The notes under the pieces are model-generated. The model was not told the origin of the DNA. It made no database searches and worked only from the letters and a program-made list of their open reading frames with translations. Source: a virus. From it: a stretch of 64,000 bases of DNA. Positions within the stretch are counted from its first letter, which is position 1; each line of letters opens with the position of its first letter. Both the position numbers and the translations under genes were made by a program. The stretch lies in IMG/VR virus record IMGVR_UViG_3300046816_000078. One strand, given 5' to 3'. Below are positions 6,131 to 62,928 of this stretch, one piece after another.

Positions 6131-7035
6131 TACCTCCCAACCGCGAATAGGTTCGTCTTAGCTTCTACTAGGTCTTCTAGGTCTTCGTCGCCCTCTACAC
6201 AAAGCAGGTCAACTCGCCCGTTGTCAGTGATCTTTTCGCATACCTCAAGAACAAGATAATCGTAAAGACCGCTGTTACGAATCTTGGTCAGCTCGACTCG
6301 GGTCAAGGTCTTGAGCCAGTCACCGAATAGCGAGTCTTCATAATCCCATACTGGGGTCAGCAACTCACGCTCTTGAGCGAGCCGGTACATTACCGTTCGC
6401 CTAGATACCTTAGCTGCCTTTCGGATCTCATCCACGGTAAGCTCACCGATAGCCTGCATCGCCAGGAATGGGAATTCCTTTACGAATCGGCGCAGGTAAC
6501 GAGATCCAGGATCAGCCAACGAAGCCATGATTTCATCGTAGTTTACGCTTGGCTCATCGGGAGGTGATATCGTGTTAAAGGTTTCACCTGGACCACACTG
6601 CGGCTCAGCACTCCATTCCTCTTGGATACGATCCAATGAGTCATGCATCGACTTGTCACCGTTACGATGAATCATCCTGCTAACGTTCTTAGCTAGGTTG
6701 ATCCGTAGATTGTAAGCAAGGATAGACTTAACCCTACTCTCATCCTTAGCTACCTCAAATTCCCACCTAACGAGTTGACCGGAGTAAGCTACATTAACGT
6801 CTAGCAAGCTTGCATAAGTGATTACCAGTATGTCAGCTTCTTGCTTAACGTCATCACGAAAATGCTGTTCGAGATCAAAGCTCTGCATAACCGAATCAGT
6901 CACCCAACGAATCTGTGGGGCGAAACGGTCGAGAACGCTGATAGCATCGATGTCCTTGGTCACTGTCTTCCCTTCTGTAAGTAGCTGGTAACAGTGCGGA
7001 TCTCTCAAGTTTTGATCGACGCGGTGAATCTTCAA
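6130..7035 (-). CDS. Putative DNA-binding / sigma-like regulator with C-terminal HTH
   Basis: 301 aa. LTVDEIRKAAKVSRRTVMYRLAQ resembles a sigma-70 region 4 type HTH. First gene behind its own promoter. TTG start without a clear SD, so the start is uncertain. Confidence 0.5.
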   Translation of the reverse strand: MKIHRVDQNLRDPHCYQLLTEGKTVTKDIDAISVLDRFAPQIRWVTDSVMQSFDLEQHFRDDVKQEADILVITYASLLDVNVAYSGQLVRWEFEVAKDESRVKSILAYNLRINLAKNVSRMIHRNGDKSMHDSLDRIQEEWSAEPQCGPGETFNTISPPDEPSVNYDEIMASLADPGSRYLRRFVKEFPFLAMQAIGELTVDEIRKAAKVSRRTVMYRLAQERELLTPVWDYEDSLFGDWLKTLTRVELTKIRNSGLYDYLVLEVCEKITDNGRVDLLCVEGDEDLEDLVEAKTNLFAVGR

Positions 7036-7253: not shown

Positions 7254-8231
7254 TTAGGCGGTAACTATCGTCTCAGCATGTGGGGGAGCAGTAGCGCCAC
7301 CGTTAGCCCAGACATAGAATTTATACTGCCATCCTGGTACAAGCAGATCAAACCTGGCCGACGTTCCGGTAACAATCTGATCGGCTGCGCCCCGAACACC
7401 GTTCATCTGGTAGCACTGCACTGTGTAGCCGGTTGGCAGGTTTCCGTTAACCTTCGCGGTAACTGCATTCCAGCGAATACTTACAGATGTACGCTTACCC
7501 GACATGGACAGATTAGTCGGAGCAGGGTAAGCAGTAGTGCTCGGCGGCGTAATGATTTCTACGGGAGGCTTAACAATTCCTGCCCGCCAACCCATCGCCG
7601 CAAGCTCAGACACGGAGTGATGCGCAATCGAAGTGTCACACCTTCCCGCGCCTGCCCAGTTAGTGATGTTAGCACCGACTACTCCATTGGTACTCTGCCA
7701 CAGAGTATGAGGCAGAAGCCCAGTTTCAGTAGCCTTGTAAGAAGCTACCCACGTATGACGTGCGGAGTTAAAGATAGGCGTTAGCCCCTGAGTCTGCGCG
7801 AAACTATTTCCGCTGTAAAGCCACGACCGCATATTAAGCGGCAGCTTGTCCAGCCCGTAGAAATGATCCACGTAACCCAGCCACGCATTAGCCCGGCTCG
7901 ACTGATTACCCGAACCTTCTTCCAGGTCCAGCATAAAAACTGTACCGGGGAAGACGGCCGATGCGGGACCAATCCACGCGCAGAATGCCTTAGCCTGCGA
8001 CACTGCATCTTGGCCTGCTACCAGGTAATGATAAAGACCGATGAACGGGAAATTGTTAGCCTTTAGGGAAGTGTAGTTAGATACGAACATATGGTCAAGG
8101 TGAGCATTGCCATATCCAACGCGGATAATTCCAGCACCACCATTCTGCTTTTTAATTCCAGCCCAGTTAGGAGCGCTGCCACTTGATACAGTCTGGAACT
8201 CGCTAACGTCGGGCATCTTAGTATCGGTCAT
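7254..8231 (-). CDS. Endolysin, GH25 muramidase domain plus C-terminal Ig/FN3-like domain
   Basis: N-terminal PDVSEFQ...GIIRVGYG...LDLEEG pattern typical of glycoside hydrolase family 25. C-terminal beta-rich about 90 aa. Confidence 0.75.
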   Translation of the reverse strand: MTDTKMPDVSEFQTVSSGSAPNWAGIKKQNGGAGIIRVGYGNAHLDHMFVSNYTSLKANNFPFIGLYHYLVAGQDAVSQAKAFCAWIGPASAVFPGTVFMLDLEEGSGNQSSRANAWLGYVDHFYGLDKLPLNMRSWLYSGNSFAQTQGLTPIFNSARHTWVASYKATETGLLPHTLWQSTNGVVGANITNWAGAGRCDTSIAHHSVSELAAMGWRAGIVKPPVEIITPPSTTAYPAPTNLSMSGKRTSVSIRWNAVTAKVNGNLPTGYTVQCYQMNGVRGAADQIVTGTSARFDLLVPGWQYKFYVWANGGATAPPHAETIVTA

Positions 8232-41231: not shown

Positions 41232-41434
41232 TATGAATGTAAGGCAGTGAGGCGCCGGGCAGGTTGCAAGAGCCGGAGCTAGAACCGAAAGGCCAGCAAT
41301 GGCGCGTCGGATGCTCCCAGACTTTGACCTTAGATGGGTGGCCAGTATCCAATCGCTAACCTTATGGGGTAAGTACAAAGAGGTTGTCTGGTTTACTAAA
41401 CCTGAATGCAGTCTTAGGACGTAAGTTACAAACG

Positions 41435-41495
41435 GGTAAGGGATGCTAGCAATAGCGCATTAATGACCGGGCTGGTTCGATTCCAGCGCTTACCG
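41435..41495 (+). ncRNA. tRNA-like module (T-arm plus acceptor-like stem, no canonical cloverleaf)
   Basis: GCTGG-TTCGATT-CCAGC T-arm followed by GCTTACC, which pairs with GGTAAGg 5' strand. The 28-nt interior cannot form D and anticodon arms. Confidence 0.4.
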
Positions 41496-41618
41496 CTAGG
41501 CGGAATATCCGCACCTAAGTCCCAAACCTAGTTATCTGTCGGATGTAATTCTAGGGGCGTAAAACGGGTTCCGATATTCCGCTGAAAGTGTCCGCACTCA
41601 AGTAAAGGAATTCGCGTA

Positions 41619-41801
41619 ATGCGTAGTGCTCACCTCCATCCGCGAGGTTTGAACAGTACCCACTACATGACTAAGGTTATGGAATTGGTCGAAGATTCCC
41701 GGCCATGCATCCATATCTTCGTCAACAATTTCCCGCTGGCAGTTCTCATAAGCATCATGGTTATGGGAACACTCGGAATCTTCATTCCTGCTAAGCACTA
41801 A
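41619..41801 (+). CDS. Possible small hydrophobic protein
   Basis: 60-aa ORF with AAAGGA SD. An antisense ORF of similar size exists and the region may instead be non-coding RNA. Confidence 0.25.
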   Translation: MRSAHLHPRGLNSTHYMTKVMELVEDSRPCIHIFVNNFPLAVLISIMVMGTLGIFIPAKH

Positions 41802-41880
41802 GGATTGGCAGCGCGTGGTTACGTAGGCTGTAAGCGTTGCGACGCTTACGACATTCTAGCGTCTGCCAAGTAAGCATTAC

Positions 41881-41934
41881 CGGGCTAACGGTTCCTCGCA
41901 ATTTGAGGATTGGGTTCGATTCCCAATAGCTCAC
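41881..41934 (+). ncRNA. tRNA-like module within a larger hairpin-rich region (about 41806-41934)
   Basis: TTGGG-TTCGATT-CCCAA T-arm. TAGCTCA pairs with cGGGCTA. One 5-bp/7-nt hairpin (TCCTC-GCAATTT-GAGGA) lies between and there is no D-arm. Confidence 0.35.
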
Positions 41935-41964
41935 TATCCCAATCCACCTAACTAAGGAAACACA

Positions 41965-52701: not shown

Positions 52702-52756
52702 CCGCAGGTCAGAGGCACCACCGAAATTTGACAAGCGGGCCGAACTGCCGTAATGT
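52702..52756 (+). promoter_or_regulatory. Promoter P1 with upstream CCGCAGGTCA site
   Basis: CCGCAGGTCA (52702-52711), 16-nt gap, TTGACA (52728-52733), 17-nt spacer, TAATGT (52751-52756), then AGTGAATGTAAGGCA. Confidence 0.7.
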
Positions 52757-55654: not shown

Positions 55655-55798
55655 AGTGGATGTAGGGCAGAACGGGCAGGTCGGGACTGAGAACCGAAGG
55701 ATTCCTAAGTCGGAATCGCGTGGTCAGAAGTCCACCTTTGATGGTTCTGCGAATTACCTACCAAGATCGGCCAGCCTCGCATGAAAGGCTGGCAACGC

Positions 55799-55912: not shown

Positions 55913-57064
55913 ATGAGCACTCGCGAAATCGATCTCACTCCTGCTGAATTCGCACTCACCTCCAACAAGATCGCCAAGCTTAACGCCCGCGCCGCTAAGC
56001 GTGGCTGGACTGGAATCCTTACCGTTAGCGGCGAGGCTTTCACCGAAGTTACCGACAATGGCGTTGGCCTCAAGCGTGAGCGTCAGATGGTACACGTTAC
56101 CATTTCCGGCAATCCCCCGAAGTACGACGGCTGGACTTTCCTCGCTCGCGCCGATTGGGCCGATGGCGGAATGGTCCTGTTCACCGCGCCCGGTGTCGAT
56201 GGCATCGATCGCTCGGGAATTACCGAAGGTTCGTGCGATCACTGCGGAATCAACCGCTATCGCAAGAGCACTTACATTGTCCGCAGTGACAATGGTGAGC
56301 AGGTCCAAGTCGGATCTACTTGCCTAAAGGATTTCCTCGGGTGGAACACTAACCCGGTGTGGGTCATGCCGCCGTCCGACAATGACCTGTTTGGCGAGGG
56401 TGGCTTTGGCCATTCGGCCCCGGTCTATTCCGTCGATACCATTCTGGCCGCTGCCTGGGCTTGCATTGAGCAGTTCGGTTATGTTCGCTCCGGTGATGAG
56501 GGCGCGACTAAGGGAACGGTGCTTGCCGTACTCGATCCGCGTACCCCTGCTGAGCGTGAGCTTGCCCAGAAGATTCTGCCGCACGTTGCGGAGTCTGCCA
56601 GTGCGGCCACCATGATTCGCGAATTCATTCTGTCGGATGAATTCTCGGGCTATGGCGAGTACGTCACGAACCTTAAGAACATCGCTCGCAGCGAATTCGT
56701 TGAGCCGCGCTTTGTCGGCTTCCTCGTTTCCGCTCCGCAGGCATGGGCCAAGTCTCGCGAGCGTTCGCTTATCAAGCAGCGCGAGAATAACGAGCTTACC
56801 AATGAATTCCTTGGCGAGATCAAGGATAAGTTGGAGCTTCCCGTGACGCTCAAGTCCATTCGCTTTATCGAAGGACAGTTCGGCGTTACCTCGCTCTATT
56901 CCTTCGTGACCGATGATGGCCACCTGGTTAAGTGGTTCTCAAGTCGCGCCGTGTTCCGCGATGGTGACGTTGACCGCAGCTTCACTCTCAAGGGTACCGT
57001 GCGTAAGCATGACGAGTACAACGGGACCAAGAGTACCGTTCTTACCCGTTGCTCGGAAGTCTGA
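55913..57064 (+). CDS. Hypothetical protein with central Cys cluster
   Basis: 383-aa ORF with GAAAGG SD. CDHCG...STC suggests a zinc site. The two antisense track ORFs were rejected. Confidence 0.7.
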   Translation: MSTREIDLTPAEFALTSNKIAKLNARAAKRGWTGILTVSGEAFTEVTDNGVGLKRERQMVHVTISGNPPKYDGWTFLARADWADGGMVLFTAPGVDGIDRSGITEGSCDHCGINRYRKSTYIVRSDNGEQVQVGSTCLKDFLGWNTNPVWVMPPSDNDLFGEGGFGHSAPVYSVDTILAAAWACIEQFGYVRSGDEGATKGTVLAVLDPRTPAERELAQKILPHVAESASAATMIREFILSDEFSGYGEYVTNLKNIARSEFVEPRFVGFLVSAPQAWAKSRERSLIKQRENNELTNEFLGEIKDKLELPVTLKSIRFIEGQFGVTSLYSFVTDDGHLVKWFSSRAVFRDGDVDRSFTLKGTVRKHDEYNGTKSTVLTRCSEV

Positions 57065-57415: not shown

Positions 57416-57627
57416 TGCCCACGTTCACAGCGGGTGATACCGTCGAGTTTGAACACGTCAAGTGGGCGGCTGACGGTAACGGCGAGCTTACGATCTTCGT
57501 TTCATGGATCGTTGAGCCTGCCACGATCACGCGGGTATGGACCCGTGGCCCTAACGTCACTCTCCGTACTCTCAGCGGGAAGATCTTCGTTCGGAGGGTA
57601 GATTCCAAGTCGATCCGATGGAAGTAA
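57415..57627 (+). CDS. Hypothetical protein
   Basis: 70-aa ORF with a TAATG overlap. Confidence 0.55.
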   Translation: MPTFTAGDTVEFEHVKWAADGNGELTIFVSWIVEPATITRVWTRGPNVTLRTLSGKIFVRRVDSKSIRWK

Positions 57628-57646
57628 TTTTCAAGATTTTTCATCG

Positions 57647-57701
57647 TCGCAGGTCAGCGGCCTGGCCAGGATTTGACAACCGGGTCGCCGCCCTGTAATG
57701 T
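57647..57701 (+). promoter_or_regulatory. Promoter P3 with upstream CGCAGGTCA site
   Basis: TCGCAGGTCA (57647-57656), 16-nt gap, TTGACA (57673-57678), 17-nt spacer, TAATGT (57696-57701), then TAGTGATGTAAGGCA. Confidence 0.7.
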
Positions 57702-58649
57702 TAGTGATGTAAGGCAAGACGAACGGGCAGGTCGGGACTGCGGCCGAAGGATCTCTAAGTCGGGATCTCGCGGTGAGAAGTCCACCTTTGATGGTTCGTC
57801 GCAGTAAGCCGAAACGAACGGCTAACCTCGGTAGTGGGGCCAGGGTGCGATTGGGCACCGCCACGGGAAAGGTTAGCAACCATAAACTAAACCACAAGCC
57901 AAAGCGGAACACGTGGCTAAGGGAATTCGCATGGTGGATTCCCGGCCCGGCGAGGTGACTCAATGGGCTTAGCAAGTGCCAGGTCTTGTGGATTGCGGCT
58001 AGTTTCGATTGTCCATAGGGTAATCGTGTTTCGGGACTTAGCCGCGTAAGCCAAACTGAGAAAGTCCTTCTTCTTTATCTAGCTTTAGCGGCCTACGGGC
58101 ATCGCACATAGTAGAGACAGAGACTAGCTCAATGGCCGGTGATAACGGTTGTACGTGGATTGTTAGGGACGCTTAGGCTCGGGCTTCCGCCCGGATAGCA
58201 ACCGAAACAATGACGATTACGCGGGTTCGATTCCCGCATTCACCGCTAGTGCGGGCAGGCAAAGAACCGGGAGCCGTCGCTGAATGCGATAACGGCAGGG
58301 GGTTTGTCCGCACATAAAGTTGGACAATGGGAACCGTCAAGAGCCTTTAGCCATAGATTAACCCTAGGCTGGCAGCTACGGCACATAAGCGCGATAAGCA
58401 GACAGCAACCGAAAGGGCCTGTTTGCTGCCTTGCGTGAGCGGTGTTTATGAACTGTATTCAGTGGGCGAATGGTGAAAGATCCGCGTTAGAGCGGGCGCG
58501 TTTATCGCAAGGGAGCGAAGCGGTTAAAACGGCTGACAATAGCTGACGGTATCCGGGGCGTGCGCACAATCCGGGGAGAATAAATAAGACGATAGGTCGG
58601 CCCATTGTTCTCAACTCTTATCCACCACACAGCAGAAAGGACAGGCTAA
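57702..58649 (+). ncRNA. About 950-nt ORF-poor, hairpin-rich transcribed region downstream of P3
   Basis: No SD-led ORF. Contains a conserved leader (57702-57810), the tRNA-like module at 58138-58245 and long hairpins such as GTGCGG...CCGCAC at 58249-58312. Confidence 0.5.
58138..58245 (+). ncRNA. tRNA-like / tmRNA-TLD-like module
   Basis: 5' GGTGATAACGGTTGTACG resembles a tmRNA 5' end. T-arm GCGGG-TTCGATT-CCCGC followed by ATTCACC-G. Interior hairpin CGGGC-TTCC-GCCCG. No anticodon arm and no G3-U70. Confidence 0.4.
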
Positions 58650-58799
58650 TGATGCAAGAGATAAAGACCACTTACACCACAGTTTGTAAAGACTGCGGCG
58701 AGACTTTCACCGAAACTACTACTACGGGTCCTGTCAATATCTGCCAGCCCTGCGCCAAGGTGCGGAGTGCCGCGATATTCGCGATGCCCAGTGAGTAAA
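58650..58799 (+). CDS. Small zinc-ribbon protein (49 aa)
   Basis: MMQEIKTTYTTVCKDCGETFTETTTTGPVNICQPCAKVRSAAIFAMPSE with two CxxC pairs and GAAAGGA SD. Confidence 0.55.
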
Positions 58800-58807
58800 A
58801 ATTCTGT

Positions 58808-58881
58808 GGGCCGGTATTCCAATAGGCAGAGAAACCGGATTCAAACCCCGGACAGTGAGGGTTCAAATCCCTCCCGGCCTA
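58808..58881 (+). tRNA. tRNA with Leu anticodon CAA but short variable loop
   Basis: Acceptor GGGCCGG/CCGGCCT (G1-U72), A73, Leu-type D-loop AATAGGCAGAG. Anticodon loop TTCAAAC with an A31-C39 mismatch. T-arm GAGGG-TTCAAAT-CCCTC. Confidence 0.6.
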
Positions 58882-58893
58882 CTATAAAAACTT

Positions 58894-59035
58894 GACCGCT
58901 GCCGATCATAGGGTTCGCGCCCGAAGCTGGCGAATGATTGGACTAGGTATCATGGGTTGCAAACCTGGCCTAGTGCGTGTATCGGATGGGTTAACACATT
59001 CGTTACGGGTTGGGGTTCGATTCCCCCAGCGGCCT
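58894..59035 (+). ncRNA. tRNA-like module with long internal irregular hairpin
   Basis: 5' GACCGCTG pairs with 3' CAGCGGCC after the T-arm GGGG-TTCGATT-CCCC. Internal helices CGAATG/CATTCG and ACTAGG/CCTAGT. Too long (142 nt) for a tRNA. Confidence 0.4.
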
Positions 59036-59077
59036 CTAATTCAAATCAAATCCACCACACGAAAGGCCCGATTCCAA

Positions 59078-62696: not shown

Positions 62697-62849
62697 GGGG
62701 CTGAAAGGCTATCGACGTAATTCCTAATGCGGGTCCGAATCCCGCCGCGCTGATCGAGAATGAAATGGTGCTTGTCGCCTATCAAAGCGCGATCGTTTAA
62801 CAGGCAAGACTGGGAATTGCGGACTACGGTTCAATTCCGTACAGCTCCA
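62697..62849 (+). ncRNA. Miniature tmRNA-like RNA (tRNA-Ala-like domain, P2 helix, short tag-like ORF)
   Basis: 5' GGGGCTGAAAGGCTATCGACG and 3' TACGG-TTCAATT-CCGTA-CAGCTCC-A give a 7-bp acceptor with G3-U70. 9-bp helix CGTAATTCC/GGAATTGCG. Internal frame GCC...TAA (62744-62800) encodes AALIENEMVLVAYQSAIV. Confidence 0.6.
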
Positions 62850-62928
62850 CAGGTCACCCACCGTCATATCGGGACGCTGATATGATCAGGTCCGTAAGTG
62901 GGTTGCGGGTAACGACGGTTACCCTAAA

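Follow-up and report, generated by a model that had tools for sequence, protein, structure and literature searches.

Phage tRNA islands repeatedly hold large folded RNAs that have stayed unexplained for decades, as is the case for the T4 stable RNAs, GOLLD and ROOL. The T4 stable RNAs, species 1 and 2 (rnaC and rnaD), are non-tRNA molecules of ~120-140 nucleotides (nt) located in the T4 tRNA cluster, which are co-transcribed with the phage tRNAs and freed by the tRNA-processing enzymes. The processing of the T4 stable RNA precursor by RNase P has been reviewed (PMC11143913). GOLLD and ROOL are RNAs of phages and prophages whose genes often lie next to tRNA islands, and have complex multi-junction folds with no partner protein gene, GOLLD comprising a variable 5′ part and a conserved 3′ part sometimes with a tRNA between them (PMC5737381; PMC12286853). 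Here a further locus is described, positions 57702-58649 of a 64,000-nt stretch of phage DNA (IMG/VR record IMGVR_UViG_3300046816_000078, hereafter the window), which we hold with a probability of about 0.9 to be an array of structured non-coding RNAs. To the known systems it adds an unrelated family, module E, whose fold is well supported and whose boundary is clear, and which has a candidate self-pairing loop.

Related metagenomic phage loci (30-odd, with labels such as L002 and L027) were gathered at graded identity through the metagenomic homologues of the upstream 383-amino-acid (aa) protein and the downstream SprT-like protein. BLAST comparison of the region with these loci revealed a mosaic rather than a single conserved block, within which modules B, C and E have each retained their helices by compensatory change from one related phage to another:

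58321-58611, + strand: module E, a closed RNA of 291 nt with 12 helices (alignment A6, 12 unique metagenomic phage sequences)
58552-58575, + strand: hairpin P12 of module E, with a 12-nt loop holding the palindrome GUGCGCAC at 58560-58567
58138-58245, + strand: module C, a tRNA-like element of 108 nt (alignment A7, 12 sequences)
57821-57877, + strand: module B, a small three-helix RNA of ~57 nt (alignment A8, 7 sequences)

An earlier, sequence-only reading of this DNA had proposed one or more structured RNAs, such as small RNAs, decoys or processing substrates, and had named covariation in alignments of related phages as the evidence to look for. That evidence is present, with 15 compensatory pairs in E, 11 of 30 in C and 4 of 17 in B, such that the + strand carries at least three independently covarying structures together with a shared leader.

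Module E is found at 79-88% identity in every array-bearing relative. RNAalifold gave a closed multi-helix fold with 12 compensatory pairs when eight sequences were used and 15 when 11 were used, and the same covarying helices came out of an unbiased scan over every pair of columns. In the curated structure (64 pairs, 12 helices) 97.1% of the cells are canonical, compared with 31-44% after a shift of the 3′ partners by 1-3 columns, while 15 pairs have changed on both sides, compared with 6.8 ± 1.3 in shuffles and 2-7 in the slid controls. On none of five measures did any of 500 shuffles reach the observed value. G.U cells in the helices number 128 and A.C cells one, and therefore the functional strand is + and the signal does not come from DNA palindromes.

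The 11-bp helix P1 joins the two ends of E, pairing 58321-58331 with 58601-58611. In the model P1 is stacked on P2, inside which lie a long irregular arm (P3-P8) and, as a side branch, P10 and P9b, and a 3′ domain closed by P11 contains hairpin P12. The hairpin at the end of the P3-P8 arm carries a variable tip (58395-58430) that has been swapped wholesale between phages. An RNAalifold helix GGUGAA/UUUAUC was rejected, being broken by L027, which supports a small local hairpin instead; the invariant GAAUGGUGAAAGA at 58468-58480 is therefore left unpaired.

When E alone was searched against Rfam with the laxest filters there was no match at an expect value of E <= 10 except for a meaningless 16.7-bit snoRNA alignment. 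Further copies were sought by pattern scans and nhmmer profiles. The scans of IMG/VR contigs gave either nothing or one match without an E profile score, that of the JGI metagenome contigs gave no further copies with a pattern that was too strict (L013-15 differ inside it), and those of 185,579 species genomes gave 31 matches, which is about the number expected by chance and of which none was scored by nhmmer. Likewise, near and distant BLAST searches with region 57702-58649 against 50,697 phage records found no match. As judged from these comparisons E seems to represent a new family of RNA that is restricted, as far as known, to a single clade of soil phages.

Module C is present in every array-bearing relative and has the layout of a tRNA-like element, with a 5-bp acceptor-like stem (GGUGA/UCACC), the strand UAACGGUU, left single in the consensus fold, a long helix standing in for the anticodon arm and a T-arm (GCGGG-UUCGAUU-CCCGC), followed by the discriminator G at 58245 and then CUA with no encoded CCA. 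Across alignment A7 11 of its 30 predicted pairs are compensatory, as in the T-stem (GCGGG/CCCGC versus GCUGG/CCAGC), the long helix (AUUGUU/AACAAU versus UCUGUU/AACAGG and UCUGUA/UACAGG) and a further helix segment (GUA/UAC versus CGG/CCG). The acceptor pair U3-A70 is found in 12 of 12 sequences, with positions 6-7 mismatched.

The closest described structure to C is the tRNA-like domain (TLD) of transfer-messenger RNA (tmRNA, RF00023), including the 'TLD-only' tmRNAs of phages, with which it shares an acceptor stem, a D-loop-like strand without a D-stem (ACGGUUGUACGUGG in C, cuGGaUUCGACgGG in the tmRNA consensus), a long P2-type helix and the T-arm GGUUCGAUUCC. In keeping with this, an Rfam search of 57600-58900, at gathering thresholds and at E <= 10, returned only a weak tmRNA fragment, scoring 20.3 bits against a gathering score of 47 and covering the P2 and T-arm columns only with the acceptor unaligned. 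C differs from tmRNA in having U3-A70 rather than the G3.U70 alanine identity pair, five acceptor pairs rather than seven, no CCA and no tag-coding mRNA-like domain, its P2-type helix being capped by a short variable hairpin. C was therefore rejected as a tmRNA on the score below gathering and on the missing G3.U70, CCA and tag frame. A permuted or two-piece tmRNA made of C and E was rejected as well, C holding both acceptor strands and E having no tag frame. Nor is C a canonical tRNA, as it has no Rfam tRNA match, an arm of ~25 bp with a variable tip loop of 4-7 nt and no cloverleaf with the standard 5-bp anticodon stem and 7-nt loop.

The layout shared with the tmRNA tRNA-like domain accounts for both the partial 20-bit match and the odd calls made by ARAGORN, which reports C in the window as 'tRNA-???' with a 2-base anticodon and its counterparts as a 92-nt tRNA-Arg(tcg) at L004 8046-8137 and L005 2501-2592. 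In some phages the tip of the long arm presents UCG, GCG or UAG in a 7-nt loop, mimicking an anticodon loop, the loop in the window being 4 nt. Automatic annotation thus misreads elements like C, and would over-count tRNAs here. A covariance model of C (R1) scored 129 bits on C in the window and otherwise found ordinary tRNAs at ≤29 bits, together with a diverged copy of C just upstream of E in L027. It did not find the phage's own mini-tmRNA (62697-62852), and by this model C is unrelated to the other tmRNA-like modules of the phage. Separately, in L011 ARAGORN calls a putative permuted tmRNA ('tmRNA*', 636 nt, 30-residue tag) at 7421-8056 beside a tRNA-Arg and a tRNA-Glu.

Module B is found at 79-99% identity in L002, L008, L013-15 and L027 and has no Rfam match. 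Its 17 pairs, of which four are compensatory, comprise 114 Watson-Crick cells, five G.U cells, no A.C cells and no others.

The sequence-only reading had seen no credible open reading frame (ORF) in this ~1 kb, and comparison with the relatives bears this out. The two ORFs listed for the region, an antisense one of 114 aa (57631-57975) and a second of 61 aa (57773-57958), gave in tblastn only fragments with stops, coinciding with the nucleotide-conserved RNA blocks, and neither is kept as a protein, while the flanking 70-aa and 49-aa genes gave full-length, stop-free matches. A 28-codon ORF at 57963 had no match in the relatives, and the first ORF led by a Shine-Dalgarno sequence (SD) begins at 58649. 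Module E has stops in all six frames among its homologues, varies in length from 257 to 306 nt across phages with indels that are not multiples of three and has no 3-base periodicity, its variable columns falling 15/23/20 by phase. A protein-coding gene was rejected on the lack of both a conserved open frame and periodic substitutions, and 57702-58649 is a region without a conserved ORF whose RNA strand is +. The suggestion that a 1-kb non-coding stretch is unusual in such a genome did not hold, as stretches of this kind are not rare in this part of it; the right third of the window is a tRNA/RNA island with 21 ARAGORN calls and the mini-tmRNA recognised by Rfam.

The loop of hairpin P12 reads GUGCGCAC in nine of the unique sequences and GUGGCCAC in three (L002, L005 and L014), a GCGC <-> GGCC exchange in which the central dinucleotide is either CG or GC with no single-change intermediate. 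The two adjacent central columns change jointly, and the partition of sequences that they define matches no other column. Adjacent bases cannot pair with each other in one chain, and therefore the switch preserves only the self-complementarity between two copies. A GC/CG switch of the internal dinucleotide was part of the support for symmetric intermolecular kissing loops seen by cryo-electron microscopy (cryo-EM) in L21a of GOLLD and L9.3 of OLE (PMC12286853), and the P12 palindrome resembles GOLLD and OLE in this respect. Both loop states occur on two different 3′-domain backgrounds, which suggests recombination or recurrence, a sign that is only suggestive with two states. That E copies associate loop to loop is accordingly put forward as a tentative possibility, the chances being somewhat short of even.

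The remaining features of the array, read from promoter to downstream gene, are as follows:

57673-57701, + strand: promoter-like motif P3, TTGACA-N17-TAATGT, with three exact copies in the window
57712-57806, + strand: leader RNA, a paralogue of the P2 leader (55663-55756), which runs into a tRNA-Val
57889-58133, + strand: variable spacer X, unconserved between relatives
58249-58313, + strand: module D, a stable hairpin with a minimum free energy (MFE) of -32 kcal/mol (z = -3.75)
58612-58648, + strand: linker with a CCACCAC motif and the SD of the 49-aa zinc-ribbon ORF (58649-58798), containing repeat D18

The sequence-only reading had placed the region behind a consensus promoter, and a promoter-like motif is indeed there, being one of three identical copies at 52728, 55626 and 57673, all on the + strand where a scan of the window would expect 0 by chance. 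A generic sigma-70 scan does not score this motif because TAATGT fits only 3/6 positions of TATAAT. The block around P3 (57628-57737) is conserved at several sites in each related locus, and inside the region no terminator-like site was seen on the + strand besides one within the variable hairpin of E.

It is known that RNase P cleaves model substrates consisting of an acceptor and T-arm as well as non-tRNA RNAs, including phage RNAs and pre-tmRNA (PMC11143913), and that tRNA-like t-elements direct the cleavage of longer transcripts by RNase P and RNase Z (PMC1920247). In plant mitochondrial t-elements and signals of the MALAT1/mascRNA type a tRNA-shaped cleavage signal sets the end of a neighbouring RNA (PMC1920247), which is the role proposed here for C and, in L011, for a tRNA-Val. 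Those signals belong to organelles and eukaryotes and are unrelated, and cleavage at C is a prediction. A processing substrate was among the roles offered by the sequence-only reading, and the tRNA-like layout of C makes it a plausible processing signal.

In the proposed order of events, a transcript from P3 would cover the leader, B, the spacer, C, D (where present) and E and extend into the small gene beyond. The host tRNA-processing enzymes would recognise C, with RNase P acting at its 5′ end and 3′-end processing after the discriminator at 58245, and the tRNA-Val that takes the place of C in L011 would be processed likewise. Cleavage would free E as a stable separate RNA, whose new 5′ end would lie a few bases away from the closing helix P1. 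Most likely E would then act in trans as a folded RNA particle, in which the invariant junctions may make tertiary contacts or meet a bound partner and the palindromic loops of two copies may pair with each other. A Pfam screen of 20 window proteins showed no partner of the Ro, RtcB, SmpB or RNase P protein type.

The spacing of C and E bears on this proposal. E starts 3-6 nt past the discriminator of C in L004-8, L013-15 and L027, such that C abuts E, while in L011 E lies elsewhere, 3-6 nt after a genuine tRNA-Val and upstream of the 383-aa gene. This amounts to a natural swap in which the same RNA stands behind a tRNA-like element or behind a true tRNA. From this arrangement we lean slightly towards E being a stand-alone processed RNA. 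For the locus as a whole it seems reasonably probable, by analogy with GOLLD, ROOL and the T4 stable RNAs, that this is a promoter-driven modular RNA locus in a tRNA island with E working with the phage tRNA set during infection.

The likeness to GOLLD and ROOL is one of arrangement, E being phage-encoded and next to a tRNA or tRNA-like element, and with GOLLD in particular it extends to a variable part (the leader, B and X), a tRNA-like part (C) and a conserved part (E). E has no sequence or profile similarity to either (no Rfam match at E <= 10) and measures 291 nt against ~580 and >800 nt. It also differs in being an autonomous closed module that moves without the 5′ part, and the switch in its palindromic loop is a hint of a possible multimer. 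Compared with the T4 stable RNAs E is larger and unrelated in sequence. A bolder proposal is that E is a compact self-assembling RNA, released by tRNA processing, whose palindromic loop joins the copies in a symmetric dimer or a larger RNA-only assembly and which acts on or with the phage tRNAs or the host translation apparatus. This is speculative and rather doubtful. If true, it would make E a third class of 'ornate' phage RNAs beside GOLLD and ROOL, unrelated to them, much smaller at 291 nt and easy to dissect. At this size E is far easier than GOLLD or ROOL to study by probing, native gels and cryo-EM, and could help to test whether self-assembly and a link to tRNA processing are general among such phage RNAs. 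The main interest of the locus lies in E and its coupling to the tRNA-like element, not in hairpin D.

A number of observations weigh against this interpretation or parts of it. All 12 sequences of E come from one narrow clade with ~80% identity or more, and many helices (P5, P12 and most of P1) therefore never vary. The tight spacing of C and E is not universal, with an insertion of 60-75 nt between them in the window and in L002-type phages. The acceptor stem of C has only five pairs, with two mismatches adjoining the T-stem, and RNase P cleavage there is a prediction. The palindrome of P12 has two states only and, given that recombination occurs in these phages, one event may lie behind the switch; closure of the loop by two extra pairs into a tetraloop is an alternative. 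Lastly, the folding energy of the region is no better than that of a coding control, with MFE z-scores of -1.85 on the + strand and -2.28 on the - strand against -2.51.

Modules B and C are likewise unremarkable in energy (z from -1.1 to -2.0), and folding energy was dropped as a criterion. The description of the region as full of long helices thus stood insofar as covariation identifies real structures; it did not stand for energy, and conservation with compensatory changes is what distinguishes the region rather than helix density. The example chosen for that description, a helix at 58249-58312, exists at 58249-58313 as module D and is a non-conserved insertion, the least conserved part of the array. 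D is missing between C and E in L004-L008 and L013-L015, and L002 has a diverged insertion at this site. D is not an obvious terminator because no U-tract follows it. A copy of D (92.6% identical to window 58254-58306) lies in L008 at 6502-6555, between the stop of the 383-aa gene and a tRNA-Leu, and D therefore behaves like a small mobile or duplicated hairpin module.

Among other explanations, the region or E could be a cis-acting 5′ leader, be it a riboswitch, an attenuator or a translational operator, for the next gene. The distance fits, with 29-39 nt between the end of E and an SD-led start codon in 9 of 12 loci, and so does the recurrent linker of CCACCAC plus SD. Four different genes follow E, encoding a 49-58-aa zinc-ribbon protein, an unrelated 62-63-aa protein, a 44-aa protein and the 383-aa protein (142 nt away), while in L014 and L027 another RNA module follows instead; E is therefore not the leader of a particular gene. 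E is also shut by its own terminal helix, with no alternative terminator/antiterminator or SD-sequestering pairing seen, and at 291 nt and 12 helices far exceeds typical leaders, which makes a cis-acting role unlikely.

The modules might also be decaying remnants of tRNA or tmRNA with spacer between them, conserved through phage kinship only and functionless. C does resemble a degenerate tRNA or tmRNA end and is an odd tRNA to ARAGORN, spacer X and hairpin D are unconserved, and the array is not found everywhere. In at least seven relatives with ≥80% protein identity the matching place is free of stored gene calls over 0.8-1.5 kb, while in L009 and L010 (77%) and L012 (71%) SprT follows almost immediately and the whole array is missing, such that the array is dispensable or replaceable. 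Neutral decay would not give 15, 11 and 4 compensatory pairs, 97% canonical pairing and invariant junctions. Nor does it fit a tip within E that is swapped wholesale (257 to 306 nt in total) while the helices stay paired, a DNA identity of E as high as that of the neighbouring protein genes or higher, and the keeping of E after its relocation in L011. That the modules are functionless remnants is quite unlikely.

A third alternative is that E is a highly diverged RNase P RNA, group I or II intron, tmRNA body or member of GOLLD/ROOL, and its genomic setting is like that of GOLLD and ROOL. An invariant GGUGAAAG in E is followed by a hairpin with a GUUAGAG loop, a combination that resembles the J11/12-P12 region of E. 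coli M1 RNA and is a possible lead. E also holds an invariant, unpaired UGAAA (within 58468-58480) and an AGCGA, which fit the UGNNA and AGNNA words of the tRNA-elbow docking module, in which two T-loops of these types are brought together with six invariant core residues (PMC3664808). Each word is expected several times by chance in 290 nt, and in the model helix P3 separates the two. None of these families has an Rfam model that matched E at the threshold given above, the topology of E, in which P1, P2 and P11 meet in a three-way junction enclosing two domains, differs from the P1-P2-P3-P4 pseudoknot core of RNase P, and E has no exon context, complete tRNAs preceding it. For bacterial RNase P RNA in particular neither RF00010, RF00011 nor related models matched, the helices backed by covariation do not give the P4 pseudoknot core that CR-I and CR-V form, and neither GAGGAAAGUCC nor ACAGAA-type strands were found in E. 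Membership of a known family is thus very unlikely. Finally, a role of the palindromes and hairpins as DNA (origin, packaging site, operator or recombination site) would suit the 8-bp palindromes GTGCGCAC or GTGGCCAC, the mobile hairpin D and modules shuffled between phages, but is extremely improbable given that an excess of G.U over A.C (128 to 1) would have no meaning in a DNA duplex or a cruciform, where both strands are read, and that the nested helices reach over long distances, with up to 290 nt between paired bases.

The window as a whole comes from a tailed phage of ~96 kb, uncultivated and recorded in soil metagenomes, with genes for portal, prohead protease, capsid, class II ribonucleotide reductase and PolA (Pfam and window proteins) and a G+C content of ~55%. 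BLAST found no close relative of it among the 50,697 deposited phages.

The leader behind P3 and its paralogue behind P2 share direct repeats D4, D7 and D12 (20 nt identical; 63 nt at 84%), and a hairpin keeps its pairing between the two, reading GAUUCC/GGAAUC behind P2 and GAUCUC/GGGAUC behind P3. The window-type leader is common to L027, most other relatives having a different, longer one. In L002, L008 and L013-L015 an alternative leader of ~170 nt lies between promoter and B (for example L014 3810-3975); it is itself conserved with at least one compensated hairpin (GGUUCCC...GGGUAUC versus GGUUAGC...GCUUAUC) and may be a further structured RNA module without a counterpart in the window. 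Within spacer X, 57889-58046 has no counterpart in any relative and 58047-58133 is common only to L002 and L006, while an unrelated segment takes this position in L004, 5, 7, 8, 13 and 15.

Repeat D18 of the linker (58611-58630) resembles 59041-59060, and a similar linker stands ahead of different downstream genes in the relatives. At both of these places and in L006, L007, L008 and L013, ATCCACCAC is followed ~10 nt on by an AAGGA-type SD before several unrelated small ORFs, and the motif may serve this group of phages as a common element for translation initiation or processing. The 49-aa zinc-ribbon gene and the 383-aa gene share 25 nt (58695-58719 and 56028-56052) at 88% identity, encoding a similar GE(A/T)FTE peptide, which may be a trace of recombination between modules. 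Elsewhere in the window, two acceptor-plus-T-arm elements resembling minihelices lie on the + strand at 41433-41499 and 41879-41937; their T-loop reads TTCGATT and their trailer CTAG or CTAT. R1 scores them at 22 and 21.6 bits and ARAGORN calls neither; the ~0.7 kb around 41433-41937, which contains short overlapping ORFs only, may be a second tRNA-like RNA island.

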